DNA of 64,000 nt from Protoeuglena noctilucae. Lineage: Eukaryota. The stretch lies in the NCBI GenBank assembly GCA_958009085.1, contig OY253680.1, forward strand, positions 868,001-932,000. The letters run 5' to 3'. The first letter of the stretch is position 1, and each line of letters begins with the position of its first letter. The position numbers were made by a program, and so were the translations under genes. The notes below the pieces were generated by a model, which was not told the DNA's origin, did no database searches, and was given only the letters and a program-made list of their open reading frames with translations. This document shows, one piece after another, positions 14,528-57,843 of this stretch.

Positions 14528-14942
14528 GGGGGATGCTGGCGGTGTGGAGATAGAAGCAGGCTGTCTGGTGGACGGACAGGGGGGAACATGGGGCAGCGGG
14601 GGGTATGGCAGCGGGGGAGAGAGCCCGCGAGTGTTCCCCTTGTCTGTTTCCGTTTCTGACTGGTTTGGCATTGCGACGCGTGAGCGTCCCCTTGAACCAG
14701 CGGCGACAGAAGACGATCTGGGAGCATTAACGAGGCTTTCGAGCCTGTGAAATCTGCATTTCGTCAGCGCGAGCGGTCGGGAAGGGCAGTTCAGCACAGT
14801 GGCGTTGGCGGCGAGGGCTCCGAGCGCCGCGCGCGAGTCCGGGCCTCGCTCCTGATCCGGTGAGTTTATTGATGCCTGCAGCCATCGTCGCATTGCCCCG
14901 ATCGCGTTCCGGCAGGCGCAGCAAGGGCCGCTTGCCGCAGTC

Positions 14943-17900
14943 ATGTCGGGCCCCGGGGCGGCGAGCGGGGAGGGCGGAGGCGTCCCAGCGCTGGTCGACG
15001 CGGATGATCTGGAGCTCGGAGCGCCTTTCAGTGGTGGCGACAGCGAGACGGTCGAGGTGCTGAGAGCGCGCTGGGTCTCGAAGGATCGGGATTTGGCGGT
15101 GAAGCGGGTGGACATGGACCTGCGCGGCACGGCTCCGAGGTCGAGGAGGGAAATGGTCCAAAGGAAGGCCGCGGATCTGGTGGAGATCGCAGCCGCGACG
15201 AGGAGTGCGACTGGCTTGTGTCCGTGAGTCGATGCTGCGGGTTGTAGGGCTGGGAACGAGATCGCCGATGATTAGTATAAACCTGGAACATGTCCTCGCT
15301 CTCCTGCAGGGTCCTGGGCGTGGCCGTCCGCGACCGGAGCCTGCTGGTGGTGATGCCGGTGTGCGCGCGTGGGTCGCTGGCGCAGCGCCTGGCAGAGGGG
15401 CCTGCCCTTTCGGCGCTGGAGGTAGTGGACGCGGCGGTGCAGGTGCTGGAGGGCCTGTGCGCCCTGCACGAGCGGGGCATCGTGCACGGCACGATCAAGC
15501 CCAGCAACGTGCTGGTGGACGACGAGGGGCGGCTCCTGCTGACAGACTACGGGCTGGCGGGGATAGCGGCGACAGCCGATGTCCAGGTGGGGCCGGGGCG
15601 CAGGAGGAGCGCTTGCCAAGCACTCTTGTCAACATCTGCCTGTGTGTCGTGGCAGATGCATACACTGGCAGTGCCCTCTCGGTCCGCCTCCGCAGCTGGA
15701 GCCAAGGAGGGTCGGCGAGGAAGCGAGGGTCGGCGCTGGGGTGTACGCGGCCCCGGAATGCAGGGGCGAGGGTCGACGTGTCGCGAGTCTCGCGTCGGAT
15801 GCGTACGCATTGGCAGCCGTGCTGTGTCACGCGGCGTCGGGTCAGGGGGCGCCCGCCGATGGCAGGCCCCCTGAAGTGCCGGATACGGTGCCGGAGCCAC
15901 TGCGGTCGGCGTTGCGGGGGGCGCTGCGTGAAGTGGCGGAGGAGAGGATGGGCGTGGCGGACATGCTGGTGGCCGCAAATGAGTCCAGGAGGTGAGTGCC
16001 TGGGTGGGCGAGGAGGAGGGCGTGGCACGCCAGGCGCATGTGGATGGGCTTGTGCGTGTGCAGCATCTCACTCCTGCGACGTGAATGCCCTCGCAGGGTG
16101 TTGCTGCAAACGTGCTGCATCTGCCGATGCGAGGAAGAGGAGGAGGCACTGACGGCGTGCTCGGCAGGGGCGCACCGCATCTGCAAAGAGTGCCTGGGGA
16201 GCCTGGTGGGGACGCTGGCGGACAATACGCGGGCACTGACTGCGGATGGGGACGTGGTGTGCAAAGAGAGCACGAAGCAAGAGTGCGGGGGCGCCTTTCG
16301 GTGCAACGAAATGGTGGAGGCGCTGGTGCAGACGCGGGCGGCAGCGGCGTGTGCGGGGTTTGTGCACGCCGTCCGAAGGCAAGCGTCGGCGGCCGCGGAC
16401 GCCAGGGCGGAGGCCCTGCGGGTGCGGGTGTTGGAGCTGGAGGCGGCAGGCATGGGTGCGGTGGAGGCGACCCTGGAAGCCCATCGGCGGGCGATGGAGG
16501 ATCTGCTGGTCGTGATTCGGTGCCCCGGTTGCCGACGCCCGGGGGACGTCGACGTCCAGAACTGCATGGCGCTATACTGCGCTCCGGATGTTGGCGGGTG
16601 CGGTAGCCACTTCTGCGCGTGGTGCATGGAGGCCTGCCCCGACTCGGACGCGGCCCATGCGCACGTGAGCGAATGCGGGCTGAACCCCAACCGACCGCAT
16701 CTGTACGCGTCAGAGAGGGACCATCAGGACAACGTCCGATGGGAGCAGCGGCTGCGGGTGGTGGCGCGTCTGCGGGACTACTTCACGAGGTGCCACATGG
16801 AGGTGGGGTGGGCGACTGAGTTCGCGACGCTGCCGGCGATCCGGGACCTGGGGTTGCGGTGGGAGGACGTGCGCGCTCACATGGACGGGGTGGTGGTGGT
16901 GCGGACCGGGGACGAGCTGGTGGAGGCGGCCAAGAGGGGCGGGGTGGTGGAGCTGGGCGGGGGCGAGGTGGTGCTGAGGAGGGCGGTGCGCGTGCGGGGC
17001 ACGAGCGTGACGGTGCGCAACGGGACGGTGCGGGTAATAGACGAGGAGATAGTGAACGACGGGTACGGCGTTCAAGTGGAGATGGGCGGGAGGTTGACGG
17101 TCGAAAATGTTCGGGTGGTGGGCACAGGGCTGAGTTGCGAAGACGGCGGGCAGGCAGAGCTTCAGGGCGTGGAGATCGCCGACTGCAGAGAAAACGGCGT
17201 GTTCTGCCGTGACCAAGGATCTAAGATCGTGGTGCAGGGAGGGCGCATTATGGGGTCCAAGGACTCAGACGGGGTGGCATGCGAAGAGGGCGGGCAGGTG
17301 GAGCTGCGGGGCGTGGAGATTGCTGACTGCAGAGAAAATGGCGTCGTGTGCACCGGCCACGGGTCCACGGTCGTGGTGCAGGGGGGGCGCATCACGGGGT
17401 CCAAGGACGGGGCCGGGGTGGCATGTGGACCGTGGGCAGGCAGAGGTGCGGGGCGTGGAGATTGCCGACTGCGAACGCAGTGGCGTGCTCTGCACCGGCC
17501 ACGGGTCCACGGTCGTGGTGCAGGGGGGGCGCATCACGGGGTCCAAGGGCGGGGCCGGGGTGGCATGCCTCGACGGTGGCCATGCGGAGGTGCGGGACGT
17601 GGAGATCGCCGACTGCAATGAGAATGGCGTGTCCTCCCGTGGCCAGGGGTCCAACGTCGTGGTGCAAGGGGGGCGCATCACGGGGTCGGTGGGTGAAAAT
17701 GGGGTGGCTTGTGAGGACGGTGGGCATGCAGAGGTCCGGGGCGTGGAGATCGCCAACAGCAATGACAGCGGCGTGTTCTGCGATGGCCCAGGGTCCAAGG
17801 TCGTGGTGCAGGGGGGTCGCATCACGGGGTCCGTGGAGCACAACGGGGTGGCGTGTCATGAGGGGGGGCAGGCGGAGGTGCGGGGCGTGGAGATCGCCGA

Positions 17901-18345
17901 CTGCAAGGAGTGTGGCGTGTTTTGCACTGACCAGGGGTCCAAGGTCGTGGTGCAGGGGGGGCGCATTACGGGGTCCAAGAACTTTGACGGGGTAGAATGC
18001 CAATTTGGCGGGCAGGTGGAGGTGCGGGACGTGCAGATCAGTGACTGCCGTCGGTACGGCTTGTCCAGCGACGGTCGTGGCAGCAGGATTAGCGGGGCCA
18101 ACATTCAGGTCGCCAGATGCCCCAAAGCGGTGTTTGTGACCAGGGGGGGGGAAGGTAGATGTGGGCCTCTGACGACGGGTGGGTGCTTGTTGGCAGGCGG
18201 ACAGGACTGGTCCACCCATGATCCTTCCAAAGCACCAATGCGCTGCAGCGTAACGGGGGAGAGTGCGATGGAGTGTGGGTACGGTGGAGTGAGTAGCCTG
18301 TCCGCCAACGGTTGCTTCGAATTGAATTTGAAGTGTAAGATGTAA
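14943..18345 (+). CDS. Pseudokinase + RING + IBR/Rcat-type Zn finger + right-handed beta-helix protein; 2-nt frameshift near 17428 (pseudogene, allele or assembly error)
   Basis: [73 protein letters not shown]; repeats GVEIADC..GV.C...[10 protein letters not shown]. Exons ~14943-15223, 15310-15586, 15698-15992, 16097-18345. Confidence 0.8.
17140..18060 (+). repeat. Seven tandem 144-nt (48-aa) beta-helix repeats
   Basis: The gtg(g/c)agat anchor falls at 17169, 17313, 17455, 17599, 17743, 17887 and 18031; all spacings are 144 except one of 142. Confidence 0.95.
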
Positions 18346-20245: not shown

Positions 20246-23200
20246 ATGTCGCTCGCGCCCAGGTGAGGCTCGGACATGGCGCGCACCATGCGCTGCTGCG
20301 CGCCCGTGCCTCTCGCGCAGCGTGGGCCACCAGACGGCGCTCTCGCACTCTGTTATTCACTGCATTGCGAGAGGGGCAACCGGCCGGGGCCCGAGCGCAA
20401 CCCATCCGCCCGTGTCTGCAGGTGGGGATTCGGGCTCTCCAGCCCACAGGTCCTGTGGGCGGACGCCAACACGCTTGTATATCTTTCCGGTAACAGCGTG
20501 ATTGCGCACAACATCGCCTCGAGGGGTGAGAGCCGCTCCCCGCGCCGGAGCCACCCCGCCATGCGCCGCCCCCATTAAACGCGCCCGCGACCGGCGCTCC
20601 CGAACCGGGACCTCCCCGCACCTCGCGCTTTCGATTGACATTCACTTCGTGCTCCATCAAAGCCCCCCGTCGCGCCTCACGCCCCCCGCAGTGCAACACA
20701 TTGCCAAGTCCCTGGGCCTGGGCATCACGTGCTTCACGCTCAACCGCAAGTACGGCCTGGTGGCTTTCAGCGAGCGCGGGGAGGGCTATCACCCGCACAT
20801 TCGCGTGTGCCGGCTGCCCGAGTTCGGCGGCCAGGAGTTCCGGCGCCTGGCGACGGTCGACGCCACCCACGGGGACGCCGAAGTGCTGGTGGACTACTCG
20901 GCCCTGGCCTTCTCCTCCGACGGCCGCCTCCTCGCGGCGTGCGGGGGCGCGCCGGCCCCGGCCGTGACGGTCTGGGACTGGACCGACCACCGCCCGGTGG
21001 CCACGGTGCGCCTGGACGCCCCGGCCACCTTCGCGTCCTTCGACCCCTTCCAGCGCTCCCTCCTGTGCGTCTCCACGCCGCGCGGCTCCACGCTCGTGCG
21101 CGTGGACGCCGAGGGGGACGCGGCGGGCGGGCACCAGTCGGCCGCCCTCGACTCGGGGCACGGGGCGGCGGTGGCCCACGCCTGGGCGGGGCGCGGCCTG
21201 CTGCTGTGCGGGACCGACCGGGGCCGGCTGGTCTACACGCGCGTGGAGGAGGCCGCCGGGCGCCTCTCGCAGTCGCACTTCAGCCCCCCCGACGTGGCCG
21301 CCAGCGGCCCCATCACGCGCCTGGACCTCAACGCGGCCTTTGCCTTTTGCTCCGTGGAGGGGTCGGCGCAGGTGCACGTGCTGCGGAGAACGAGGCTGTC
21401 CGAGTCTGACGAAGAGTCGGACGCTGGGGAGAATGACCTCATGAGGGGCGGCATGCGGACGAGCGGCAGGGCGGGGGCGGGGGAGGGGGTGGCGTTTGAG
21501 GAGACGCTAGAGCCGGCCGGCGCGGGCACGGCGCCCTCCGGCGTGCGGCACCTGGCTGTGGGTGGCCCCGACCACGCCGTGCTCCTGGCGGTGTGCAGGG
21601 GCGGGCACATGCTGACGGGCGTGACGGTGAGCGGCGGGCGGGAGTAAACAGCGCTTTCGCAATTCCACGCTCCCTATGCAGAAAGCCAACACTTCAGTGA
21701 TGTTCAATGCCCATAGCAAATGCCCATAGCAAGCCCCCGCTGTCCCCTTCCCCCGCTCGCAGGGCAAGGACGGCTCCCTGTCCCTCCACCCCCTCCTCGA
21801 CTTCCACACCGGCCCCATCCGCGCCGTGTGCCCCCTCTCGGACTCCGTGGTGGCCACGGTCGACGCCAACGGACGCGTCGCCAGATGGGAGACCGACACC
21901 TTTGCGCCCCTCTCGTCCGCCCAGGCCGGCGGCGGCGTCACGTGCGTCGCGCACTCGCCCGCCACCCGCACCATCGCCGTTGGCGCATCGTCCGGGGTCC
22001 TGCGCCTCTACCGCGCGGACGCGGGGGGTGGCCTCACCCTGTCCGCCCGCTTCAAGCTGCACCCGGAGGCGGTCGCGCGCGTGTGCCTGTCCCCCGCGGG
22101 GGACTGCGCCGCGTCCGTGTCCTCGGACAGCAAGCTCTACTTCACGCAGGCGGCCGCCGACGGCACCTGGCGCGCCATGGGCTACGCGACACCCCCTGAT
22201 CCAGTCCTAAGCATGTGCTGGCCGGACGCAGGCGCCGTGCCCGCGCCGCTGCTGCTGATGACGGCGGCGGGGGAGGTGGTGTGGGTGCAGACGCCCCCCC
22301 GCGACGCCCAGGCCGGCCGCGACCACCGCCTCCCCACCAAGCACGCCCCCATGAAGCGCATGCGCATCGACCACCTCGTCGTGGCCGCCGCGGGGGTACC
22401 CGGGAAGGACATGCCGTCTATTCTGGGCCTGACGGGCGACCGACACCTGCAGATGTACGCGGTGCCCAAGGAGCTCCAGTCATGGTCCACCAGTGAGCGA
22501 CATGGGTGGTGTTAGTGTGGATGATGATGTGTCTTGTATGGCTGCTATGCAACGCTTTGTGGCACTGCTGCTCTTCCCTCTGTCCCTGCTTGCCATGACC
22601 TGCACCCTCACACCGTCACACGTCTCTTCCCTCACTCCCCTCACCTGTTGCTCTCCACCCCCGCAGCTGGCGCGAGGGGCGGTCGCTTGCACGCCCCCGA
22701 GCGGTCGGTGGTGGCGCATGACAGGGCAGCCACGAGCATCGCGGTGGCGCCTGACCGCGACCACCTCCTAACCACCTGCGAGGACGGGTCGGTGCGCATA
22801 TGGGGGCCAGGGCTCACCGGTGAGCGAGGGCGGTGCTGGGAGGTGTAGTGGGATGGACTGGGCTGGCAGCAAGCGATGGCACTGTGCCGCCTCCCTTGCT
22901 CTGCGCAACCCCTCCCGCGGAATGCCTCGCACATCTCCACATGCGATGTCTGTTCAACCTCCCCTCTCTGCAGTGACTCTTCCCGTGTCTGAGGGCCACC
23001 ACCTGCACAGCCAGTTCACGGGGGGGTGCACGGCGGCTGCCTTTGCCCGCCGGGGGACATTGGTCGTCACCGGTGGTCAGGACGGCACTGTGCTGGTCTC
23101 TGTGCTGCACGGCATACAGGTGACGATGCGCGGAGGCAGGCACCGTGCTGGTGGAGTGTCTGTCTGTGACTCTTTATACGCATTTACGCCCGCCCTTTCA

Positions 23201-26200
23201 CCGCATCCCAGCCACCGCGTCCCTCCCGTCACCGCCTCTCAATCACCGCCTGTCACTGACCCCTTCTCTCACTAACCCCTTCTTTCACTAACCCCTCCCC
23301 TCACCCCTCATCCCCCCAGATGCACATCCCCCCCGACGCCGACATGTCCACTCCCCTGCCCATCCCTGCTCCCATCGACGATGTGGAGGACACTGAGGGC
23401 GAGAAGGACGCGGCAGAGCTTTTCGCGGCTCAGATGGACGCGACTGCGAAGGCCAGGGCGGAGCCAGCCACGCGGAAGGTGCTGGAGAGGGTGGAGGAGC
23501 TGAGGAGGCAACTGGCGTCGTGCATCGAGAGGTGAGGGGGTGGGTGTATAGGGTTAGATAGGGATGGGTAGGAGAGGTGCTGGAGAGGAGTACAATAACA
23601 TAGCACTAGCCTGCAAATGCTATCGTCTCTTGTACAGAGACTCCCTGCATACAGAGGCATGACGAGCACGGCGTGCATTCATCCCTTACCTGCACCCACA
23701 CCCTATCCCCATCCCGGATCGCAGGAACAAGCTGGCGGACGCCTCGGAGCGTCTCACGGAGGACGAGCTGGTGGTGAATCGCTCCCTGCTGGCGCGGCTG
23801 GAGGCGGAGGCGGCGGAGGAGGTGGGGGATGTGAAGCGTCGCATCGAGCGGCGCGACATGGAGAGGGAGGTGGTGCGGGCGCGCATCCTGCGGCGGTGCT
23901 GGGACGCCATGGCCACCAAGCCCGCCACGGTGTGCGCGGTGCGGTCGAGCGCCCGCGTCCACAACTTCCCCATCACGCACGCCAGCCGCATGACGCGAGT
24001 GGCCGCCAAGCTGCTGCTCTTGCGCAAGGCAGAGGCGGCGCAGCGCAAGCATTTGGGTCTGGATGACTGGAGCGCCAAGCTGCGGACGGCGGAGGTGCCG
24101 CCGGACATCGCGGGGGCGACGGCAGCGACGGGCCCGGCTGCCCCCATGCAGCCGGCGCCGAGCCTGGCATCGGCTATCACCGCCGTGGGTCTGCCCAACG
24201 GCCCCGCGCACGCGCACTCGGGCGTGGAGCTGCCGGCCGCTGCCGTGGCGGCGAGCGGGTCATCCGAGGGAGAGGGGGACGACGACCGTGCGGTGGTGAA
24301 GGGGAGCGAGGACTGCATGGCGGGGATGAGGGACGAGGGCGACGGGATGCAGGGCATCATGTACGCTCCCATGGACTTGCTCGCTCGCTCCCGGCGCGTC
24401 ATCCAGGTGTACCTGCTGGCGTTGAGGGTGGTGGGGGTCAAGGCAGAGTTCAACCGGAGATTCGAACAGGTGACCTGAGGGGGTGGGGGTGTTAGTGGAT
24501 GGGGGTGGCGAGCAGTCGCAAAGGGGCTCAGCGTAAGTTGTTTTGTAGTTAGTAACAACCATCTGGAGGCATCACGCCATCACGTAGTAGTATACCACAC
24601 CTTCATGTGCCGCACCACTCCCCACCCCACCCCTCCCTTGCCCCCCCTAGGTGGTCTCTGAGAAGCACGCGGAGTTGGAGCGCGTGGCGGAGGTGAATGC
24701 GCGCATCCGCGACGTGGTGGCGGACCTGGCGCGGCTGTCCGGGGGGGCGGCGAGGGCGGACGCGGACGCGGGGGCAACGCCGGCCATGGACCCGGAAGAG
24801 GTGAGGGGCGGTGAATGGGTGTGTATTTATATGTGTATATTTAACATGGTAATAAGTTGGTAACGATGGACCCAGAAGAGGTGAGGGGCACAGCAGATGT
24901 GGGTGCCACGATAGCAGACATGCACCCTTCCGTCTCTCATCTTCCCTGTGTATACACTTCTACCACAGATACACACTTTCTCCTTCATCCCACGTCTCAC
25001 CTCCCCACCTCTCTCACCCCCAGGACCCCTCGTGGATGCTCCGCGTTTCTGACACCGAGGTGCAAGTGGAGCGTTTCCTGACGCGGGAGGAGAGGGAGAG
25101 GGTCGAGGCGCAGAGGGCCGAGGAGGAGGCCAGGAGGGCGGCGCTGGCCAGGGACAACGGTGAGGGGAGGGTGGATGCTGAAGAGGGGTGGGGAGTGTTT
25201 TGTACTGAGTGTGGTGGTGAGGCCAGGAGGGCGGCGCTGGCAAGGGACAACGGTGAGGGTGCTGGTGGATGATGGGGAGGGGTGGGGGAGTGTTGTGATG
25301 AGTGTTGGGGTGAGACAGGAGGGCGGCGCTGGCAAGGGACAACGGTGAGGGTGCTGCTAGGGAGGGGTGGGGGAGTGCGATTGTTGCAGTTAGTGAGACA
25401 TAAGGGTGGTGAGAGCGTCGTGATGAGTGTTGTGATGAGACATTGGGAGGTGACAGTGTTGTAGTGAGTGTTGTGATAAGCCACGATCTCACCGTCGCCA
25501 CACCACCCACCACGCTCACCCCTCACCTCCCCTCCCTCCCCCCAGCCGCCGAGCGTGCCCTGAAGGAGATGATGGGCGGCACCCTGGACCGCGCCGAAAG
25601 CGAGGACGAGAGCCTTGCCTTGGTGCGCCCCGCATTCATGGACATGGACCCAGCCAAGTGGACAGACGAGCAGAAGAAGGCAGCACAGGAGTACAAGGCG
25701 CGGGAGGTGGCGGTGAAGGAGGAGAGGGACAAGAGGGTCATGGGGCTGGAGACGGAGGTGAGGGGCTGGGGGGTGAGAGTGATATGGGCAGTGAGTGAGG
25801 AGGTGGAGAGGAGTGAATGAAGGTTGGTGCTTGATATACCTGGCTCTGACATTTGCATGGACACGTTTGTTCACTCACCGTCACCCACACCCACACCCAA
25901 ACCCACCCCCACACTTGCACCCACACCCCCAACCCCGCTCCCCCTCCCCCTCCCCCAGCTCCGTGGCGCCAAGTCGATGATCGAGGAGATCCTGTTAAAA
26001 GTGGACAAGTCCGTGGAGACGCTGCGATCCGAGCGCGTGCGTGCCGAGTTCGCGGTGGCGGTGCTGGAGCGCCGCATGGTGCGGGTGGCGGAGGCGGCGG
26101 ATGCGTTGTTGGAGCTGAGCGCGCAGAGGGAGCAGGAGCTGGTGGCCGAGGTGGCCAGGGCGGACACGGCCAGGACCAAGAAGAGCACCGAAGTCATCGA

Positions 26201-28137
26201 GGTGAGGGGGAGGGGACACTCAGTTCCACTTCCATTGCCACCCTTAACACCACCCCCACTGCCACCCTCCCTGCCACCCCACATCTCACCCTCAAGCCCC
26301 CACTCATCCCACTCACACCCCCCACCCCCCTTACTCCCCCCCAGGCCCGCGAGGACGCGGCGGCCCACGCCCGCCTGGCCGACCAGGCCCAGGCAGAGGA
26401 CCGCCAGCAGGAGAAGCAGTTCCGCAGGGACTTCCAGGAGGTGTCCGACTACCTCCCCGCCCTCACCGCCCTCTACCGCAAGCGTGTGTACCTCGCCCAC
26501 CCCGCCCCCGACCGCGGACCCCAGCGCGGCCTCTCCCGCCGCCTGTCCCGCCGCGCTTCATTGGCCAGCCACCACGGCGGCGCGTCCAAGCGGGCCTCGT
26601 CTCGCGGGCTCAGCCGCGGCCCGTCGCACGGCCGGGCGTCTCGCATCTCCGAAGACTCTGAGGCGGGGTCGCCGGGCGCTCACGCGTTCGAGTCTGTGGT
26701 GGGGGGGTACGCCAATGCAGAGGACCCCGCTCCCTCGATGGGAGCGCTTGACCCGCACCCGGGCGCCGGGGCTGAGCCGGTGACGGCGGAGCACGTGGCG
26801 CCCCTGGGGGTTGAGGAGTGCCCGCCTGGGCTGGAGTCCGCGTGGTGGGAGCGGCTGCTGGCGGCGAGGGAGGCGAAGATCGAGACGGAGAAGCGGCTGA
26901 GGAGGGCGCAGGAGGTGAGGGGTGGGAGAGGATGAGGACGAGGAAGGGTTGGGGTGGTAGGGCAGTGCGGTGGAGCATGTCAATGCTACTAACATGTCGA
27001 CAGTTTGTCACACTTATGCAACCTCTTACTCAATCGCTGACTCACCCGCTCCCCCACTCACCCCTCCCACCCCCTCCCCCACCCCCAGGTCCTCTCCTCC
27101 AAGCAGTCCCGCCTGGCGCGCCTGGTGGCCCAGGAGGCGGCGCTGTCAGAATCGGTGTCACGGGCGTCAGAAACCCTCGACGAGTTCCGTGCCAGGCGCG
27201 AGGCGCTTCTTTACGACTTCGAGATTCCCCTGCTGCTGAAGCAGGGGCAGGTCGAGGCGCGGCCGGCCGAGGGCGAGGACGTGCTCAGGGACGGGGAGCT
27301 CATCCACGCCGGGAACGTGCAGGCGGTGAACAGGGAGATACGGTGAGTGACTGGTGATGTGTGGGTGATTGCGCTGGTGCTGGTGTGAGTTCTTGGCTTG
27401 TGCCGTGCACTTAGCTCGAGCCAGCTCCCTCGCTTGCTTGCCTTTATCCATCGCTTGCTCGCCCTTGCATCGCTCTCTCTCACAGTTGCTGTTGCCCCCC
27501 TGTGCCTCACCGGGCCCCGCCCACCCCCACCGCCCTCCGCAGGGAGCAGGGCCAGCGCAAGATCGACATCTTGGTGGACATCAAGGAATTTAAGCGGGGC
27601 ATCTACGAACTTGAATGGGAGAACCGTCGTTTAGCCATGGAGGCGGAGGACATGAAGGAGCGAACACGGGAGCTGCAGCTCTTGCGCGTTACCAAGGAGC
27701 TCCAAGAGGCGCTCAAGTCCAACGGGGGCGACGCGGGGGGCGGGCAGGTGACCAATCTCGAGAAGCTCACCAAGCACTCGGCCCGGCTGCACGCCAAGCG
27801 CATGGACGAGAAGCGGCGGCAGATGGGGGCGCTGGAGCGGGCCGTGGCGGAGCGGCAGGGGCAGAACGAGGACCTGGAGGAGAGGCTGCGGAAGATGGAG
27901 CAGCTGGTGGGCAAGGAGGGCCGCATCCTGCAGTCCAAGACGCTGCGGCACAACGCGGGGGGTGCGAGCCTCATCAGCCGCCGGATGCGGTCGCTGGTGA
28001 CCAAGGCGCGACTGCGGGACATCTCGCGGCAACAGGCGGAGGAAATCGAGATGCTCGTCGCAGAGGTCGACCGGCTGCGGTCCAGGACCTTCCCTACTTT
28101 TGTGACTGTCGTCCACGACAGTGCAACGGGGGTGTGA
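20246..28137 (+). CDS. CFAP43: Cilia- and flagella-associated protein 43 (WD40 + coiled coil)
   Basis: MSLAPR|WGFG...WADANTLVYLSGN N-terminus, WD40 exons, long coiled coil, LLLKQGQVE, C-terminal EVDRLRSRTFPTF. Confidence 0.85.
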
Positions 28138-28431: not shown

Positions 28432-31400
28432 TCACTCGGACTCGGCCCTCTCCTCGCCCACCCGGGGCCTCTTGCCCTGCGGCGTCCCAGCCCCATCCGC
28501 CCTCGCCCGCTTGGTGCCCTTCCCCTTCGCAGGCGTCGCGCCGTCCGCCTCCCCCGCCGCCCCCTCCGTCACCGGCCCCTCCGCCTCGCCACCCCCGCAC
28601 CCGCTGACCGTCACCCCCCTCCGCACGATGCTGCTCGTGCTCTGATCGTCGGCACGCATGGCCACGCCCCCGCAATCAGCAATCACCACGCCCCGCAGCT
28701 CCGCCTTCCCGCCCTTCCAGCAGTGCACGGCGTCGCCCTTGGCCCCCGCCACGCCCCCGCTCACCATCTTGAGCATCGCCCCGCTCTGCACCCCCACCCC
28801 TGCACCCCTCAGCCACACGTGCTCCAGCGTCACGTGCCGGCCCCGGGCGGGCGCGTGCACCATCCACTCCTCCAGCCCCTCCGCAGCCACGAGCGTGCCG
28901 TTTGACAGCGTGATCTTGCCCCGCGAGACGCGCAGCGTTGACCGCAGCGTCACTTCCGCACCACCCAGGTCAGCCTCAAAGCCTTTTGCGTCTGCCGCCA
29001 ACACCGACTCGACCAGGAGAGCCTCGGTCCAGGGCCCAGAAAACGCCTCGTCCTGCACGCGTGTACGCGCGGCACATGTCAAGCTGGGAGGCGTGCATGG
29101 GCACGGCCGGGGTGCATACACACGGGCGGTATCTACATCCAGTTGCCGTCGCATTTCACCTTGCAGAACGACAGCATGACGTCCCTCTTGGCCAGGATGC
29201 CGCCCTTCTTCTGCTCGACGCCCGGCCCGACGCACTCCACCACCTCCACGCCCTCCATCGTCAGCGCCCCCTTGTCCCCGCACGCCGCCCCGCCCCACAC
29301 GCACCGCGCGATGCGGCCCCCGCGCACCGTAGCCACGCTCTTGTCGTGCGACACCCACACCCCGCGGCCCCCGCACCCGTCCACGTCGCAGTGCTCCACC
29401 TTGACCACGCCACCCCCCACGCACAGCACCCCGCTGCCGCGGCACCGCATCAAGCGTACGTTGCGCACCGCGGCCTCGCCTTCCGCTGGCTTGCCCCCCT
29501 CCACGTGCACTCCCGTGCGGCAGTCCTCGATCGCCGCCCCCTCCACCTCGACCTTCGCTCCCGGCCCTGAGAACACACCAGGTCCCTCTGCCGCCGACAC
29601 CGTCCCGCCCCGCACCAGCACTGCCGACCCCTCGCCCTCCCCGAACACCCCGCCAACCTTGCACTCTGAAATCGCGACGCCGTCCGCCTCCACCTTCCCG
29701 CCCTTCGCGCACCGCACGCCGTGGCCGGTAGCCTTGGCGATGCGTCCATTCCGGACGCTCGCGCTCGCATTACTTCCCTCCACGACTACCCCGTCCCCGC
29801 ACCCCTCGATCGCCGCCCCCTCCACCTCCGCCTTGCCTCCCACGCATGCCACCCCAGCCTCCTTGCAGCCCTCGATGCGACCCCCGCGCACCATCGCCTG
29901 CGCGCCCGACCGCGCCCGCACCCCCGCACCCACGCACGATGCCACGGCGGTGTCATGGAGCTCCACGGCGCCGCTCTGCATCTCCACCCCGTCCTGGCGG
30001 CACTCGTCGATGCGCCCGCCCCGCACCACCAGCCTCCCGCCGCCCGTTGCCACGATGCCTGACTCGCATTCGCGGATCTTGACACCCTCAACCGTCACAC
30101 TGCCGGCGGTGAACTGCAGTCCTTCCCCGGAGCACCCGGCCACCGTGCAGTCACGCACCGTGGCCCCGCCCACCGTCCCAATCGACATCCCCGGACCCCA
30201 TGCGCCCGTCACGGATGCCCTCTCCACCTCCACCCTCTCTGCGCCCTGGCATGTGATGCCCCCGCGCTCCACCCCACCCCCCTCCATCCGCAGCGACGCA
30301 CGGTTGAGTTCCATCCCCCCGCCGCGCAGCCACAGGTCGACGAAGGTGACACGCGTGCCCTTACCGTCCGCCAGAACCAGGGGCCCGCGCAGACCCTTTT
30401 CGGCCGTGAGAGTGCCGTTCCGCACGGTCACCCTCCCCCCCGTCACGCACAGCCCCATGCGCATCGCCACCTCCTCTCCACCCAAGTCGACCTCGAGAAA
30501 ACCCTCCGGGCCCAGAGCCTGGGCAGCCTCCCACAGCACAGGGCCTGTCCACGGCCCCGCAAAGGCGACATCCTGCACGAAGAAGGAACGAGATGTAAAG
30601 GTGAAGTCACGGTGCTTCGCAAGCATCGGCCACCAGCGCCAGCGAGCTTGCGGTATCCATATCACCCCCGCACCTTGCAGCCCTGGACCTGGACGTCTTT
30701 CTTAGTCACCACGCCGCCACGCCTCTCGCTGACGCCGGCCCCCCCGTACCCGGACACCTGCAGCCTCTCGGCCGTAACTCTGGCCCCGTCGCTGCACAGC
30801 AGGCCCCCGAAGGCGCAGTCAGAAACCCGACCGCCCCGCACCGTCGCCCGGCTGCTCGTGTGCGACACCCACAAGCCGTGGCCCTTGCACCCCTCGATGT
30901 CCGCATCGTCGGCATCCACGGCGCCCCCCTGGACGCACGGGATGCCGCTGCCGGAGCACAGCTGCACCGCCACCCGCCGTAGGGTGACCTCCCCGCCCTT
31001 CGTGCACAAAACTCCTGTCCCCGGGCAACCCCGAACGACGACCCCATCGCTCAGGTCCACCTGAGCGCCACCCGATACGTCCACGCCGGTGCCGCACAGC
31101 TCCACGACGAGGCCCTTGGTCCCCTCGACGCGGCCCTTGTCAGCAGCGACCACGCCGGCGTGGCCGCACTCGGCGACCTTGCCGCCGTGAACGGCAGCCT
31201 TGGACCCGGCTCCCTCGACCCGCAGTCCCTCTCTGCACTGCGACACGTGCACCCCCTCCACCTCCGCTCTGCCGCCCTCGCTGACCAGCACGGCAGCCCC
31301 GCTCTTGCAGTTGACCACACTGCCCCCCCGTAGCGTCAGGCACGCCGACTCTCCTTGCGCAGTTACTCCGTCCCAGTTGCACCCACCCACGGTCGCCCCG

Positions 31401-33720
31401 TCCACAAAGACGTTGTCAGTCTCGCACAGCAGCCCGCCTTTCCCGCAGTCCGACATCGTGACCGAGCGCAGGACCACCTTCCCGCTTGCCTTGCCCTCCT
31501 CGCCGCCCAGGATGTGAACTCCGTAAGCATTTCGGATGTCTGTGACCCGCAGACCCTCCAGCTGCGCTCCCCCAACGTCCTTCAGGCTCACCCCTCCCTC
31601 CCGGCACTCTGCAAAGGTCCCCTCACGCACCACCAGGCGCGTCTCAGGGCCCTCCGCCGCCAGCGCCACGCCCTGGCACCCGTTAACCGTCGCCGAGGTC
31701 ACCTCGCATGCCAGGGCGCCGCCGAGCCTCACGCCGTCGGCCTTGCATCCCATGATGCGGCACCCTCGGATGACGACGTTGCCGGGGCTGCCCTCTCCCT
31801 CGCCACTGAGGCGCACTCCGCACTCAGCCGCATCGTGGATCTCCACCCTGTCCAGATGTACTGTTCCGCAGCGATTGGAGAACACACCATTAGTGGCGGC
31901 ACCGATGATCGCCCCACGGGTCATCCGGATGGACGCCCTGTTGCCTGCCTGCAGCCCTTTTCCGTGCAGCCGGACGCTCGATAGCTGCAGCTCCGTCCCA
32001 CTGCCGTATGCGAACAGCAGGTACTTTCCTCCCATGTCATCAACGGCTTTGAGAGTCCCGTTGCGAATGGTGAGCCTCTTGAGCCCGCCCACCGACAATG
32101 GCGTCCTGACCCGCACGGTGCCGCCGTGGAGGTCGATCGTTGCCTCGTTTTCACATGCCGCAGCGATGGCCTCGGTCATCAGTGCCTCGGTCCACGGACC
32201 CTGGAAGGACCGGCTCTGCGGACTCGAAGCATCACAGCATGGTCGCGAGCTGACGTGCATGAGGTCAGTGCAGCAATCCTGCCTAAACCGTAACGCAGAG
32301 CATCCCATGCATCACCACAGGCAGACACGGTTCCAAACCCCACGTAGCTAAACCACCAAAACGGCAGCTATCAGTTACACACCTGGCACCCGCCAACGAC
32401 GACGTCCTTGTGCTTGAGCAGCCCCCCGTCCCTCTCCTCCAGGGCGACTCCGAAGCACTCGAGGACCTCCGCGCCATCCACCTCGGCCGTTGCGCTCCAG
32501 CTGCACAACAGCCCTGCCATCCCGCAGCGCCGGAGGCGTGCGCCACGCACGGCGGCCTGGCTGCCTTTGCCGCTGACCCACAGGCCTTGGCCCGCGCAGT
32601 CAGCCACATGAAGGTGCTCCGCCGTCAGTCGGGCGCCGAGGATGCACAGCACACCGCTTCCGGCGCACCCCGCAACCATGAGCCCACCCAGCGTCGCCTC
32701 GCTATTCTCGCCCTCCACCCACAGCCCTGTCCGCCCGCACGCAGTGACTTCCGTCCCCGGCCCTTCCACACGGAGCTTACCCCCGTCTGTGCATCGGAAG
32801 CCACTCTTTTTGCATGCTGTGACCCGGACTCGCTTAACTTGAACGACCCCATTCCAGGAGGACTCCACCCCAGAGTCGCATGCGACAACCTCCAGGTCCT
32901 CCAGAGAGATGGCGGCGTTGGAGCTGACCACACCACTGCCCGCGCATTCCAGAGTCCTGCCGCCGCGGATGCTCAACACCGTGTGGTTGACGGATTGGTT
33001 GCCCTCACCCTCATCCTCTTGGGCCACCGACGCGTATATGCCGTAACCTCGGCAGTTCCTGATATCGATGCCCTCCACCTCCACCTGTGCCGCCTCCGCC
33101 GGCCCTTGGCACTCGACCGACAAACCCTCGAAGCACCCGGAGGTTGTGACGCCCGACAGCACCATCTTGCTCAGGTCGCGGCCAGTCTTCACTGAAATGC
33201 CCGTGCCATGGGTCGCAGCGACCTCGACGCCGGTCAGCTGGACGGACGCGGCGTCCTCGCAGAGCATGCCGACGCCGCAAGCCTGAGAGACGCCCCCGCC
33301 CTCCATGTTCAGGGTTGCCCTCTCGCGCACCTCGACACCCGCCCCTCGCAGCCGCACCATCTCGAGCTCGACGAAAGTCTTCTCGCCTTGGATCACCATG
33401 GCTTGCGCGACTCCGTATCCTGCCACGAGCGTGCCGTTGCGCAGGCTGACCCGGCCTTGCAGGGGCAGTGGGGCGCCGAGCAGGACCTCGCTGCCGTCGA
33501 GGTCGATCCGCGCTCCGTCCTTCTCCGCGGACTGCAGCGCCAGTCGCAGTCGCTCCTCCGTCCATGGCTGCGCCTGCGGCGGGGGCTGGATCTGGGGCAC
33601 GCGCCGGTTGGGCTCAGCGGTTGGCATTTTGCCGCTACCGCGCTCTACGATGCTCGCGGCTCCGTCTGCGCCTGCTCGCCCCGCCGCGCCCCACCTAATC
33701 GACCATGACGTCATCAACGA
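28432..33720 (-). CDS. Large protein of four tandem right-handed beta-helix modules, one per exon, with a basic NLS-like tail
   Basis: Phase-0 introns 32382-32216, 30673-30573 and 29159-29053 join four ORFs in frame. Each module begins (F.G)PWT followed by (I/V/A)DL.G..V....L.......NGTL. 5' end uncertain. Confidence 0.8.
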
Positions 33721-34119
33721 CAACCACGGAGGTTTTCTTCTCCTCGGACGGCTCCATCGCTGCGAAATCGCTTCCGAGGTGCACCTGCATGCCGCGGGGC
33801 GATGGGGCGCGTTACAGGAGGTTCATATCCTCAAGCTGCACCGCTCATTATCACCAACTGAATCACAGCAAATTGCATTAGACCAACGATTCGCGCGGGG
33901 CTCACACCTTGAGGCGCTGTGGCGACTGAGCGATCAAGTGCGTTTCCGACAGAGAGCAGCGCGACTGGATCGAGATGTTCGACAAATACTCAGGGAAAGC
34001 GGCCGTGGACCTCTTCATGCGGATGGCGCAGTCGGACAGGCCCACCCGTCTGACTAGGGCAGAGGACATCTAAATCAAAACGCTCATTAAGGCGTACCCT
34101 CGGCGCAATGCATCCATGT

Positions 34120-52300: not shown

Positions 52301-54238
52301 GCATTGTGGACAGCCCAGGGGGTAGTAGGGGCACTGCGCATGCGGAGAGAGCGGTGGGGTCGAGAGGGGCAGGAGCGGTGCCGGTGTCGCTGCCAGCCAC
52401 GCCCGTGAGCCAACACGGCGTGGCGCACGATGGGCCTGGCAATGGGAGCGTGCAGGGCAATGGGAGCATGGATGGCAAGTCCATCCACAGATCCATCGAC
52501 AGGTCGATTGACAGGTCGATGGATAGACCAACACCGAGTAGGCTGGACGTCCTTGCTCCCTCGCTGACCCCCGCATTGACGGCGTCCCGCGAAGACGCCC
52601 CGCGGCTGGGTGGGGCGGTGGGGGCCGCCACGCCTCAGATGGCCCTGGGTGGTGGCACCCCACATGCCACGAGCGCTGGGAATGGGAGCAGTGGGGGTGG
52701 CACTGTGGGTGGCGGTGGTGTGGGTGGGAGTGCTGTGGGTGGCAGTGCGGTGGGTGGTAGCGCTATCGGTGGCAGTTGTGGGGGTGGCAGTGGTGTGGGT
52801 GGTAGCGCTGGGCTCAGCGGTGCCCTTGGCGGTGCGGTGGGTTCCATAGCCCCCGTCTCTTCCTCAGCAGTGGCAGTGGCAGTGGCGAGCAGCCCCGCTC
52901 CTAAGCTGGGCGTGTCGGAAGAGCCATTGGTGGCGTTTGTGCTGCGGGAGTCGGGCAGAGGGGTGAGGCATGGGGAAGGGTGGGATGAAAACATGGAGTG
53001 ATTTGTTGTGACGTGATGTGACCTGTTGCCACGCCACAGCGCATGTGCTGCAGTTGTCTCAACACACCACGCATCGCAGTGCAGTGCAGCAGTTGCCTCG
53101 CCCCTTCGCCCACCCCCCGCAGTCGATCCGCAGCGCCGGCACTGCCGGCACTGCCTTGGATATCGGATCGAATCCGGCCTCGTCCCTCCCGCGACCGGCC
53201 CTGGACGCCACCCTGCGCCCGCCCCCGGGGTCACCAGAGCGGTCGGGGGATGGGGAGGGGAGGGGCATGGGGAATGGGGAGGGGAGGGGCTGGGATGATG
53301 GGAATGGGGAAGGGAGGGGCTGGGGGTCGCAGCGGAGCGTGGGACAGCCCCACAACGCTGCCGAGAGTCGAAGCCCTGTTGCGAGAAGGCCTGTGGGTAC
53401 TGGGCCAATAGCAGGGCCAACAGCCGGGGTGTCAACAGCGAGGCCAATAGCACGGGCAACAGCTGGGCCAACAGCGGTGGGGCTGTCAAGGAGGGATGTC
53501 GACGCTTCCCTCCTCGCGTTGCCTCGGATGGCGGTGCCCCGGGTGTCCCTGGGGGTGGAGGAATCGGACGGGTTCCATTACCGCCGATTAACGGGGATAG
53601 GGCAGGTGCCCTTCGAGGGGAAGCACACGGTGTTCGTCGACACGCCAGAGAAGACGCCAGAGAGGGGTGTCGCGGGGGCGGTGGGGAGGGCAGACGCGGC
53701 TGCTGCGCTGTTGGTGGAAGTCGATTCGATGCGGGGAAAGTGCGACAGCGACGGGGGTGGGAGCGTGGAGCTGGTGGTGGATGGTGGGGCACAGAGCGCA
53801 CCACAGTCGGGGCGTGCGGGGACGGGTGCGAGGGGTGCGAGTAGGGGCAGGGGGACAGGCAGGGGCGGGTCTGGGCCTGGCAAGCACGGGGGTGGGCGGG
53901 GCGGGTCTGGGTCCCAGTTGCGTGAAATGCAGCGGCGTCGGCAGCGGTTGCGGGCGCGTCGGCAGGCGCAGGAGAGCGACAGCGAGTGGGGCAGCGAGGG
54001 GGGCGGCGGCAGTGACAGCGATGGGGAGTACGTGCCATCGACAGCCAGCCGGGGGCAACGGGTGCAGAAGCGGGGGCGCGAGAGCGGTGACAGCGATGGG
54101 GAGTACGTGCCATCGACCGCCAGGGGCAGGCAGCGGGTGCAGAAGCGGGACCGCGGCGGTGAGGGGGCGTGGGATGCGGAGAGGAGAGGCGGGGGGCGGC
54201 GCGCGGTTGCGGTGGTGGGGGGGCGTGGCGACACATGA
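46338..54238 (+). CDS. Ulp2/SENP-like SUMO protease (peptidase C48) with an N-terminal Cys-rich motif and a long low-complexity C-terminus
   Basis: DLDYLLDEEFIHDQ, HFFDPHFF, KWTKGVDIFSK, PINSALHWSL (His), LDSL (Asp), RQTNYYDCGLFV (Gln, Cys). Whether 46338-47200 and the far C-terminal exons belong to the same gene is inferred. Confidence 0.8.
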
Positions 54239-54405
54239 GGGAGGAGTGGTGTGGCTCTGTGGGTGGGTGCGTGTCGTGGGTCTGGTTTGTGCGGCGAGCA
54301 TCGGTGCTAGGTTAGAACAGAGCTGAGTGGTCTGCGGAGATGAGAGCACATGCATGGCGTATGTTGAGTCATTGTTGAACAAAGCGCTAGCACTCTCATA
54401 TGCCT

Positions 54406-54722
54406 GTCTCATATGCCTGGGGTGGCAGCCCCAGGCAAGCTGTATGCTGAGCGTCTCCCAGTCACGCGGCACATATCGACACATAGTGGCACACAGTCAA
54501 GCGACCCGTTGCTTCAACTCTACTAGTATGCACGTGTACCCTTGCACCGTGCCTGAGGGTGGATATCGATGGCTGCATAGTACTAACAACGCCATTGCAG
54601 TCGGGCATGCATGTGGTAGGGGCCCACCCATGCCTTACAGGGCGGTGGAGCACGCGTGGACCCAGCAACGACGCCCGCCCCGCCACACAGCCGCGAATCC
54701 GACGCGGGGAGGGTGGGGCTCA
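54406..54722 (+). repeat. Direct repeat, copy 1 (homologous to 58638-58934)
   Basis: Shared blocks gtctcat.tgcctggggtggcagcccc.ggcaagctgt, cgacccgttgcttcaactcta, attgcagtcgggcatgcatg, cgccacacagccgcgaatccga, ggagggtggggctca. Confidence 0.9.
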
Positions 54723-55103
54723 GTACTGTCATGGGACATGTTGACATGCGCAGCGCTACATGCAAAGCGAACCCGTCATACCGACGCCCATGGCCAGCCC
54801 ATCAGCTGACCTCGCAGCTGTTTTTGCCTCGTGCCCGGCTCGGGTCACTGCTTGTCGTCGGGCACGGTGCCGGGAGTCCTCTGTGTCTTCTTACTCTGCG
54901 AACGCAGCACGGGCGAGGGGCTCACGTGGATGTCGACATGTCATCAGATCACAGCACGTTACCCAGGAGCATTCTCTCGCAATCAGCCAGCATCTCTCAA
55001 CCGCACTGACAAGCCCACTCACGGGTGCGCCTTGCAGGGGCGTCCGTGGCGGCGAAGTCATGACGGCCGGCTGCAGCGCCTGCATGCGCAGGGGTGTGGA
55101 GAG

Positions 55104-57843
55104 TTAGTTGCTGCAAGATACGAACCATGAGCAGCTGCATAAAATATAGGCAAGCTCACGCAGTGCATATCGCACCTGGGTGGGCACGGGAGGGAAGGCC
55201 CAAAGGAACGAACCGTGTACCTTGTGGTTTGCCACCTTGGGCTCCCCCTGAAACGTGATCAGGTTACCGTTCTTCCCCAGGAATACCTGGTCTTTCGGCG
55301 GACAATTTTTATTTTGTTGTGTGAAGATTCTGTAAATTTCGCTGGGGTCTTTGGGAACGTAAATGACAGAGCCCTTCTTACCGCCACCAGTGGTCGTCTT
55401 CTCAAGCTGCACGTTCACACCGATTGCGTGCTCGAACGGGACACCCTGTGTATAAAGAGATTGTCGGCATATTAATACTAATATTGGTATAAAAATATGA
55501 CAACATTATGTTTCGCCTTCATGCGCACCACTTACCAGGGAGATCAGCCGTGCCTGGAGTCCTGTGACGGTTTCCAACATGCCATTGTTCTCGTAGCACA
55601 CACTTTTGTACAAGTCGTCCAAATCTTTTCGAGCACTGAGGAAACCGTTTTGGTCTGACGAACACTTGATGTAAAACTTCGTCTCGATTGACGTTCCACA
55701 TGCCTTTACAAAGACCACAGCCGCTTTTGGCTCTATGCCCTGCGTACAAAGCAAATGTTACATATCTGTTTAAGACCCCCCATGGAATAAAAAATGAAAT
55801 ATGGACAAAACATATTTTAGTAGGAGAATGTTTTACATCCCCCTAAAATGGAACTTACCATTAAGACGAGTTTTGCGACGTTGCGAGCACGCTCTGCATT
55901 CCCCTTTTTTCTCCCATTAGTTTGGGCTGCTACCAAGTCAATCAGTTTTTGTGCGCCATTGAATGCAACTGCGGGAGAGCGGAAGCTAATAAAAAAATTT
56001 AGACAGACATGTTAATAGTACTTACATGTCTAACATGTCAGTACACTAACATTTGTTTTATTTAAAGAATATTATAGGAATATTATTATAATAATAATAT
56101 TATAATAATTATATTATATTATATTATATTATATTATATTATATTATATTATATTATATTATATTATATTATATTATATTATATTATATTATATTATATT
56201 ATATTATATTATATTATTATAAGAATATTAAAGAATTTAAAGAATATTATTCCTTTTTGTTTATATAATATTTTCAAAAAGCATATCGTGCAATTTCTCT
56301 TACTCACTTGTTGTGGTATAAACACCACCAGAGTCTTCGTCACCATTGAGAATTCTGCCCACGTCTGCGTTGTGCTCCCAGATGTCGTAGCCCTTGACCT
56401 CGGCAAAGACCGGCTTGGTGGGCTTCTCGTCGAGCGACGTCCACAGCAGCTCACAGCGCTTGTCGTGTTTGCTCCATATCTCCGTCATGCGCACAGTCGC
56501 GACGATGGGGTCATGGTCGAAAATCTCATTGATCTCGTCCACCCCTACGGTGTTGCCCTTGCTGTCCACGAGATCCACCACGTGCTTGCACAGACTTACG
56601 TCGGTGAACCCAACGCCAAGCCTCCCCTGGGGAGAAGGCTCGACGGTGCCGACAAAGTCGATGACACCCACCGCCTTCCGAGTCTTGAGCCTCTCCAGGA
56701 GGAGGGAGTAGTCGGGTGTGAACCTCCTGCCGGGCTTGCACTCATACACGGGGACTTGGACCCTCAGCCAAGAAGAATAAACGCCTCGACACACCATCTC
56801 CTCCTCGAGCCGGAAATTGGCGTCGCACCCAAACAGGACGGGCAACTGGTATGCATCCGCCAGCAGCGTCAAGATCTTGCATGCTGCCGACCACTGGCTG
56901 CGGGCAATGATATTTATGTAAATAACCAGTATAAGAAAAACACATGTCTGAAGTAGTAAGAACACAATCTACGGCATGCAAACTTACCAATATTTCTGCT
57001 TCTTCATATATGCACAATTATTGTTGCCGTGATAGCTGACTGCTATGATATCCTGTCCCCCACTTTCCGACTTGCACAATGCGACGAGCATTCTGTCGTT
57101 ATACAAGCAGGTTAGGTAGTTGGTTAATGATGCCTGTTCCCCATCTTCCAGCCCCGGACACAGCTTAATCTCTTCAAGCTCGTCCCAGTCCACTGCAAAC
57201 AAGAATGCAGAGCGAATGAGTGGAGTCCTACTTTGAGCGTGCAAGTACATTAACTGCATTCCAGCGACTCACGTCCTGCCTCTCTGAGCTTGCGCTTGAA
57301 GGCGTGCTGGGAAATCCGCTCTGCTTTATAGTTGCTCTTCTTTACCACGATTCCCAGCCGAACAGCTTTTGTATTCTCCTTCATTGGGGAGAATAGGAAG
57401 ACGTACTCGAGGCTGGTGTTTTTGTCCGGCCGCATGGCGTCGCACAGGTAGTCGTCCGAGTTGCTTGGCACCTCCTGGAGCATGGCAATGTCGGGCTTCT
57501 CATCAGCAAGCAGCTCCTTGACCATCTCGTACCGGAAAGAAATTTGACTTGGTTCGGTGCCGTCCGGCTTGGTTCTCTCTTTTATTTTGTCCATCACGTA
57601 TTGCATGCAGCCGCCATTTGCATCTTTGCGCGGCCCCATGTTGGCCGAAAAGAGCTTCATGTCGACGGCGGCTTGTGAAGTCGGCGGCTTCGCGTCAGGG
57701 GGAGCCTGCGGGCCATGGGCGCGGGTGTGGGAGAAACACGTCATTTTTTGTTGGCCCGCAAACGAGGCCTCTTTCGGCCTCATTACTCTCCGTCCAACCA
57801 CCATACATTATTCTTTAATAGAGCTTACCTTTTTGGGTGCCAT
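55104..57843 (-). CDS. Endonuclease/exonuclease/phosphatase (EEP, DNase I-like fold) protein with a C-terminal extension, at least 7 exons
   Basis: Exons 57843-57829, 57705-57273, 57192-56988, 56897-56308, 55968-55859, 55739-55536, 55445-~55176/55104 splice in frame. Motifs KLFSAN, PDIAMLQE, VSYHG, GCDANF, VIDF, FDHDPI. Confidence 0.8.
56083..56222. repeat. (TATAT)n microsatellite inside an EEP-gene intron
   Basis: About 140 nt of A/T only, mostly perfect ATATT units. Confidence 0.97.

Follow-up and report, generated by a model that had tools for sequence, protein, structure and literature searches.

The stretch of DNA analysed here (the window) comprises 64,000 nucleotides of Protoeuglena noctilucae contig OY253680.1 and carries on its plus strand, from about position 14856 to 18345, a gene that ends in a tandem array of 48-residue units predicted to fold into a right-handed parallel β-helix. 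The explanation preferred here, to which a probability of roughly 0.55 is assigned, is that the array arose by recent amplification within the gene, that its units combine a constrained core with a fast-evolving stripe, and that the helix is the binding module of a multidomain protein. The evidence comes from the anatomy of the array, the placement of the differences between its units, a tract shared by two of them, and comparison with a family of related arrays. All coordinates are window positions unless a contig is named.

Anatomy of the repeat array

Tandem Repeats Finder places the array at 17136-18039, with a period of 144 nt, 6.3 copies and 79% matches (score 938). A first-pass annotation, made by reading the sequence, had described seven 144-nt units with a near-identical scaffold and variable patches at fixed places. 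The repeat is real and six of its units are clear, but the seventh is degenerate and the third is only 142 nt long:

17136-17279, plus strand: unit 1, 48 codons, two helix turns
17280-17423, plus strand: unit 2, which matches unit 3 at 98.6% identity over the second half of the unit
17424-17565, plus strand: unit 3, 142 nt, with a 2-nt deletion
17566-17709, plus strand: unit 4, with scaffold motifs and unit peptides
17710-17853, plus strand: unit 5, with scaffold motifs and unit peptides
17854-17997, plus strand: unit 6, with scaffold motifs and unit peptides
17998-18141, plus strand: unit 7, degenerate, the C-terminal helix cap (..DCRRYGL..)

A 29-nt scaffold motif occurs six times at no more than 3 mismatches (0.00 expected in shuffled sequences), at spacings of 144, 142, 144, 144 and 144 nt, and an 18-nt scaffold motif also occurs six times (0.09 expected); neither was found in unit 7 at up to 3 mismatches. 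Near identity holds for these two motif stretches only. Over their whole length, units 1-6 are 73.6-87.3% identical in pairwise DNA comparisons, with 80% reached in just 4 of the 15 pairs, and 64.6-80.9% identical as proteins. Unit 7 is 49-53% identical to the others overall, its first half at 61-69% and its second half unrelated, and its cap motif DC..YGL is common to the paralogues. The patch peptides listed in the first-pass annotation are all present, at unit positions 18-27, 42-45 and 2-4.

The array folds as a regular β-helix

The β-helix proposed from the sequence is confirmed by a family profile, a structural model and structural matches. The profile PF13229 (Beta_helix), whose cut-off is 25.9 bits, matches the two halves of the array with 41.5 and 66.6 bits. 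An AlphaFold model of the translation of 17431-18345 (304 residues, 14-sequence alignment) has a mean predicted local distance difference test score (pLDDT) of 82.8, with 217 of the 304 residues at 90 or above and values above 90 over residues 1-230. Three strands recur every 24 residues in this model and continue to residue 244; the last 57 residues (248-304) are unstructured, with pLDDT below 50. Each 48-residue unit comprises two turns, with strands at unit positions 4-8, 11-13 and 20-23 and again at 28-32, 35-37 and 45-48, which makes the helix a regular solenoid of 24 residues per turn that lacks long loops and has no irregular groove.

Foldseek compared the model with the PDB and returned 20 matches at E<=0.001; every entry listed at this level is a right-handed β-helix protein. 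The matches include AlgE4, GH87, tailspikes, pertactin, pectate lyase and PfbA, at 9-16% identity and template-modelling (TM) scores of 0.2-0.57, values that point to likeness at the level of the fold only. The three-stranded solenoid and the above-cut-off PF13229 profile together identify the array as a right-handed parallel β-helix.

Differences between units cluster on one arc

Variation at fixed positions had been predicted, and it is indeed not evenly spread. Of the 16 codons that are most diverse in nonsynonymous terms among units 1-6, 13 fall inside one arc of 10 of the 24 positions of a turn (scan-permutation p=0.0015). This arc corresponds, in both turns, to the end of the T2 loop, PB3 and the T3 loop, and positions 2, 3, 6, 18, 19 and 20 are variable in both. 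Because the same angular positions vary in the two turns, the unit-specific residues would form a stripe along one side of the helix.

Per-position entropy in the units of the window correlates with that in 40 full paralogue units, taken from 13 of 16 proteins (Spearman 0.65, p=7e-7), and the most variable positions family-wide are 25, 19, 23, 2, 44, 27, 3, 18, 10, 20, 43 and 6. On the outward PB1/PB2 side, positions 8, 13, 32, 34 and 37 are variable across the family and invariant in units 1-6. Since surface positions that vary in the family do not vary among them, these six units are unusually homogeneous, with a scaffold identity that is 0.83 inside the studied gene and 0.63 when other genes are compared with it. 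Among the seven paralogues with at least three units, five have no within-gene excess of identity, and the nearest neighbour of a unit lies in its own gene for 9 of 46 units (mean 3.2 and maximum 10 with shuffled labels). Family-wide concerted evolution was considered and rejected, as most paralogues lack the within-gene excess, and for the same reason the homogeneity is taken to reflect recent amplification in the studied gene and not a process acting on the whole family. Of the concerted evolution that the first-pass annotation had invoked, what stands is the homogeneity inside this one gene and a tract shared by units 2 and 3, described below; in most paralogues there is no such homogenisation.

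Recombination, copy number and the gene family

In a Sawyer-type permutation test over 61 polymorphic sites, units 2 and 3 share a concordant run of 21 sites (global p=0.0024) that spans unit nucleotides 69-144 and includes patch codons. The two halves of these units are 98.6% and 75.7% identical. The tract is significant and is the product of a conversion or an unequal crossover.

Comparison of repeat number between copies, which had been suggested as a check, gave a difference of one unit in a relative and none in the studied gene or in two paralogue clusters. Among the available copies of the studied gene (12 and 11 contigs), neither unit number nor patches differ, and in the P0009 and P0005 clusters, with 15 and 8 variants, no change of unit number and a single change, at unit position 30, were found, in contig samples that are possibly not independent strains. 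The relative in which the number does differ, P0012, is a more distant family member with 141-nt units that are 84-92% identical, present on three metagenome contigs. Its array has 4.4 units in L001 (2123-2739) and 5.4 in L002 (4179-4939), two contigs that are otherwise almost identical, and the truncated L003 has the same junction as L002. The added unit is of hybrid sequence, and one codon is inserted at its junction, as expected of unequal crossing-over; the other units are identical in DNA. The ratio of nonsynonymous to synonymous divergence (dN/dS) over the P0012 array is 0.87, with few changes. The N-terminus of P0012 (..LWSLPREVLEHAL..LACTCRELRAMV..; L001 945-1050, L002 3001-3110) looks F-box-like by eye, and an F-box there was rejected, Pfam reporting none at E<=0.05.

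An exhaustive HMMER search of 1.84 billion representatives returned 136 hits at E<=1e-3, only 11 of them at E<=1e-30. Close family members have the same 47-48-residue unit, with 2-7 full units each, and intact paralogues with this unit exist. The N-terminal zinc-finger region of the studied gene, which resembles RBR ubiquitin ligases (see below), is found also in P0008/P0145, P0011 and P0002. Several family members have longest contigs of the same length, which suggests that they are paralogues in one genome. Pfam scans of 17 of them detected kinase and β-helix families only and no NACHT or NB-ARC domain. Outside the clusters of the gene itself, homologue searches turned up no close orthologue of the array, a metagenome scan with the array protein gave 108 pattern hits and 0 relatives, and a search of the ESM Atlas yielded no usable match. 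In the P0009 cluster, P0154 and P0156 have 40-70 N-terminal residues of P0005 type on a body of P0009 type, and each of the two clusters includes proteins from a contig of one and the same length, mosaics that suggest either recombination between neighbouring paralogues or alternative gene calls.

Rates of change along the unit

By Nei-Gojobori counting, the overall dN/dS of the units is 0.47 and that of the scaffold 0.19. When the variable positions are fixed a priori as the top 8, 10 or 12 from the paralogues, dN at these positions is 0.63-0.79 against a scaffold dS of 0.34-0.35, so that dN at variable positions divided by dS of the rest is 1.85-2.24 (0.005-0.025 of bootstrap replicates gave 1 or less). 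Inside the same codons the apparent dS is 1.0-1.7, which brings their own dN/dS to 0.47-0.61, and patch codons overall give 0.47-0.69. The PAML site models M0, M1a and M2a were reimplemented and run on an IQ-TREE topology; ω is 0.31 under M0, and the main class of M1a, with 76% of sites, has ω 0.085.

A frame break in unit 3

A 2-nt deletion in unit 3, after TGTG (after base 17427, at about 17428), changes the frame from 0 to 1 modulo 3, so that no single open frame spans the array. The first-pass annotation had overlooked this break. Both halves stay open, for 541 and 403 codons. All 4 cluster variants, from 12 contigs of public assemblies, share the frameshifted tail of the upstream open reading frame (ORF), and the downstream ORF recurs as a called protein on 11 contigs, one variant having a single-residue difference. 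Because the ORFs recur across contigs, the deletion is reproducible in the deposited data, which come from assemblies that are possibly not independent. Rescue of the frame by an intron was also considered: there are 270 frame-restoring GT-AG pairs, 0 of which have a GTGAG donor, and none was accepted. As assembled, the studied copy may have become a pseudogene recently.

The closest relative of the N-terminal part of the gene, P0002 (71% identity), leaves its frame exactly at the helix start GGVVELGG, beside a run of G (+1 reading). To judge from its sequence, P0002 would carry either a frame break or an uncalled intron.

Domain layout of the gene and its surroundings

Four regions precede the array in the gene and one follows it:

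14856-15992, plus strand: kinase-like region, in three open-frame pieces with likely introns between them and predicted exon boundaries
16098-16403, plus strand: Cys/His-rich finger like RING1 of RBR ubiquitin ligases and the helix after it (residues 2-103 of an AlphaFold model)
16512-16676, plus strand: second Cys/His-rich finger (RCPxC...C.x.C...GGCG...C.WC...C...H...C), putatively IBR/RING2-like by eye
16899-17135, plus strand: N-terminal cap and first irregular turns of the β-helix (VRTGDEL...GGVVELGG...RNGTVRV...)
18142-18345, plus strand: C-terminal tail to the stop codon, unstructured in the model, which may include an unspliced intron

PF00069 matches 15290-15874 with 58.5 bits, against a cut-off of 31.7, and covers only profile positions 62-148 of 263. 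The region contains the motifs LAVKRV (15093), HGTIKPSN (15485-15508, where HRD..N is expected) and DYG (15545, where DFG is expected). With the catalytic HRD aspartate absent and the match partial, it does not qualify as a eukaryotic protein kinase. An apparent intron with a GTGAG donor follows at about 15993-16096. In the model of the first finger, block means of pLDDT are about 62-88, and the best 10 of 48,161 chains compared with it are all RBR RING1 domains (Z 5.2-6.5, 75-93 residues aligned), from parkin, HOIL-1L, ARIH2, HOIP and UIP4. The Cys/His columns of the second finger are invariant in 4 of 4 aligned homologues.

The helix shares one open frame with the RBR-like region, neither a signal peptide nor a membrane segment appears to separate the two, and the PF13229 match begins at residue 331 of the ORF 15996-17432. 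The cap motif of the helix is common to the paralogues and to four minus-strand modules in the window. Pfam scans of the gene's ORF pieces, in which the upstream exons are incompletely modelled, found kinase and β-helix families only and no NACHT or NB-ARC domain; among the ORFs scanned, none gave an F-box family.

The window has a G+C content of 65.5% and contains no N. Its open frames are broken by frame changes at GT...AG boundaries, which gives it a eukaryotic look, as do a CFAP43-like gene and an ankyrin gene described below, and Rfam gave 0 matches over its whole length. A second, larger β-helix gene lies at 28432-33822 on the minus strand, where four successive long open frames form four modules. 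Each module begins with the same cap motif (..PWTE..DL.G.EV...RNGTL..), after which come PF13229 turns; identity of this gene to the studied array is 25-35%, and it has no high-identity repeats. At 20502-26932 on the plus strand there are WD40/β-propeller and coiled-coil pieces with weak CFAP43 matches, which point to a gene of the cilium or flagellum and so to an organism with flagella, and at 58996-60294 on the minus strand there is an ankyrin-repeat open frame (PF12796, 66.8 bits). The G+C content falls to 0.47-0.56 in 54001-58000, versus 0.62-0.71 in the rest of the window, and in the one long ORF there (56078-56953) no Pfam family was found.

Origin and function of the array

On the preferred explanation, the gene would encode a large, probably cytosolic protein composed of a kinase-like region, an RBR-like zinc-finger region and a right-handed parallel β-helix of the PbH1/CASH type. 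The helix would begin with a cap and some irregular turns, continue through the six units of 48 residues each and close with a degenerate unit. Recent tandem amplification within this gene would have produced the six units, with at least one later conversion or unequal crossover between units 2 and 3. Purifying selection would hold the core and the PB1-T1-PB2 side (ω about 0.1-0.2), and the arc formed by the T2 loop, PB3 and the T3 loop would change at the neutral rate or faster. The most likely role of the helix would then be to bind ligands or substrates for the ubiquitin-ligase-like and kinase-like parts joined to it, with either the variable stripe or the invariant face as contact surface, in parallel to the CASH β-helix of FBXO11. 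It is the other domains of the protein that suggest such a recognition or substrate-binding role.

Several points weigh against this explanation. Positions were assigned to faces of the helix from the DSSP string and the regularity of the β-helix, and not from exposure calculated on coordinates. The kinase-like domain may be a pseudokinase, to judge from its motifs, and is thus possibly inactive. The RING1-like match is modest (Z below 8), no Pfam family was found in the Cys-rich region at E up to 1, and a PDB sequence search with this region gave one chance-level match only (E=1.5); across the second finger the AlphaFold model is unreliable, with pLDDT below 50. The frameshift itself could stem from faulty assembly, to which repeat arrays are known to be prone: they are misassembled from short reads according to the accessible text of PMC12222747. 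As to the rate at the arc, 'neutral or faster' may understate real diversifying selection. M2a fits better than M1a (twice the log-likelihood difference 22.4, p=1.4e-5; sites 2, 19, 25 and 44), also when unit 3 is left out (p=1.7e-6), and a partition model with a shared synonymous rate gives ω 2.2-4.4 at the a-priori positions (p=0.01 to 1e-4). Finally, among pairs of codons for the same residue, 16 of 53 (30%) at variable positions and 101 of 448 (22.5%) elsewhere differ synonymously (p=0.23), a count that weakens the alternative by which the patches are simply older than the scaffold, and by which that alternative is neither supported nor excluded.

These rate tests bear on a different account, close to the one in the first-pass annotation, in which the array is a β-helix counterpart of the fungal HET/NLR repeats: crossing-over and conversion would both homogenise and shuffle the units, and diversifying selection would drive the patches, to yield a recognition repertoire. 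It is held here as a tentative alternative. The positive M1a-M2a comparisons and the ratio of dN at variable positions to dS of the rest speak for it, as do the positions 8, 13, 32, 34 and 37 that are invariant in the units and variable family-wide, the unit 2/3 tract, the extra hybrid unit of P0012 in L002 and L003 relative to L001, the multigene family with its 2-7 full units, and the contiguity of the variable arc on the helix. The selection signal is nevertheless confined to part of the unit. When the halves are run with their own trees, codons 1-24 show none (likelihood-ratio statistic 1.35, p=0.51), the second-half signal is carried by codons 25, 43 and 44, and it rests on codons with multi-nucleotide differences. 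Allowing the patches their own rate with ω=1 beats ω>1 with a shared rate at an equal number of parameters (log-likelihood -588.9 versus -593.2, and -585.5 versus -588.8), and with ω left free the patch ω is below 1, as are the counting values for patch codons. The per-codon contrast that the first-pass annotation had proposed is positive over the whole unit, but not in its first half or under the own-rate model. The identity between units lies mostly below the 80-100% described for the fungal repeats in the accessible part of the source, unit number and patches are constant across the 12 and 11 contigs, the P0009 and P0005 clusters show 0-1 patch changes, most paralogues are not homogenised, no NOD domain was found, and the frame of the gene is broken. 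Because there are six short sequences, with recombination and multi-nucleotide codon changes among them, adaptive and neutral change cannot be told apart here. The arc evolves at least neutrally and possibly adaptively; adaptive diversification, like a shuffling-based recognition surface in the β-helix, is plausible and unproven.

The deletion in unit 3, for which no convincing bypassing intron was found, raises the question of whether the locus is dead or misassembled, that is, a decaying pseudogene or in part an assembly artefact whose pattern has no present function. The loss of frame at GGVVELGG in P0002 and the short-read misassembly of such arrays noted above point the same way. Yet a scaffold ω of 0.1-0.2 indicates long purifying selection, so that any inactivation must be recent; both halves remain open, intact paralogues carry the same unit, and the same sequence is found again on 12 and 11 contigs, in one variant with a single substitution. 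This explanation, too, is held as a tentative alternative. It is very unlikely that the helix is a carbohydrate-active enzyme (a lyase, epimerase or glycosidase), with the variable loops doing no more than lining an active-site groove. Among the structural matches, the best are indeed the AlgE4 epimerase, a GH87 glucanase, tailspike depolymerases and pectate lyases, and there is a weak NosD match, but such matches are generic for the fold, the solenoid is regular and has no groove, no enzyme-specific Pfam family scores above its cut-off, and the helix appears to be fused to a cytosolic-type RBR-like region with neither signal peptide nor membrane segment between.

Recent amplification with a constrained core and a fast-evolving stripe thus remains the preferred explanation. 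A further step beyond it, which seems improbable, would be that genes of this kind form a lineage-restricted family of intracellular β-helix sensor arrays in a GC-rich eukaryote with flagella, fused to ubiquitin-ligase-like and kinase-like parts. Such arrays would diversify through duplication of units, unequal crossing-over and substitutions localised to the stripe, and would act as a non-NLR recognition repertoire, in immunity or in self/non-self recognition. A fixed scaffold with a few fast-changing surface positions is a common design of recognition repertoires, found in the LRR, WD40, ANK and TPR repeats of NLRs and in the variable lymphocyte receptors of jawless vertebrates. If the sensor-array interpretation were true, the array would be the first β-solenoid counterpart of the HET/NLR repeats of high internal conservation. 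If the stripe is a real specificity surface, the right-handed β-helix would join the folds used for recognition repertoires, and the gene would point to a recognition system coupled to an E3 ligase in a protist or alga. If there is only recent duplication with relaxed loops, this is ordinary repeat amplification, and a useful warning that the usual site tests produce strong false signals when repeats are short and recombine.

Comparison with known systems

In the library searched, nothing was found that combines high internal conservation with a β-helix or describes the present architecture, and among the papers listed nothing on hypervariable β-helix repeats. The fold itself is shared with pertactin, with autotransporter passengers and with tailspikes. 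In such bacterial and phage β-helix surface proteins, surfaces and loops vary between strains. These proteins are secreted or part of the virion and have long irregular loops, in contrast to the regular solenoid found here in a eukaryotic multidomain protein of intracellular type. The candidate receptors of brown algae are, in the portion of PMC3341825 available, a multigene family with LRR and TPR repeat domains proposed to diversify by shuffling; the present array differs from them in its fold, in the NB-ARC and ROCO contexts described there, and in that its units are not separate exons.

The fungal HNWD repeats are the closest parallel in pattern. As reported in the available text of PMC12222747, their identity inside one gene lies above 80% and reaches 100%, unequal crossing-over homogenises them, their length is polymorphic in populations, and four variable codons map to the interaction surface. 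Within the limits of that text, the studied array is like HNWD, HET-E and HET-D in being a C-terminal tandem array with a conserved scaffold and a few fixed variable positions on one surface, in giving a positive PAML-type site test and in showing recombination between units, with variation in unit number seen here only in the relative P0012. It differs in having a β-helix in place of a β-propeller and in the identity of its units, which at 74-87% does not match the 80-100% given there; no NACHT or NOD domain was found, the studied gene shows no polymorphism, and the selection signal is not robust. The likeness to HET/NLR repeats drawn in the first-pass annotation extends to the fixed scaffold and variable positions, the site test and the recombination, and not to the identity of the units or the domain context.

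In functional terms the nearest relation may be FBXO11, whose CASH domain is described, in the part of the literature at hand, as the β-helix portion of an E3 substrate receptor. The studied protein has an RBR-like part where FBXO11 has an F-box and a UBR box, carries a kinase-like region upstream and has recently amplified units; no F-box was reported in it, and it is not placed among FBXO11-type proteins, the likeness being a functional one only. What the two would have in common, on that partial description, is a PF13229-type β-helix joined to a ubiquitin-ligase module, a putative one in the protein studied here.

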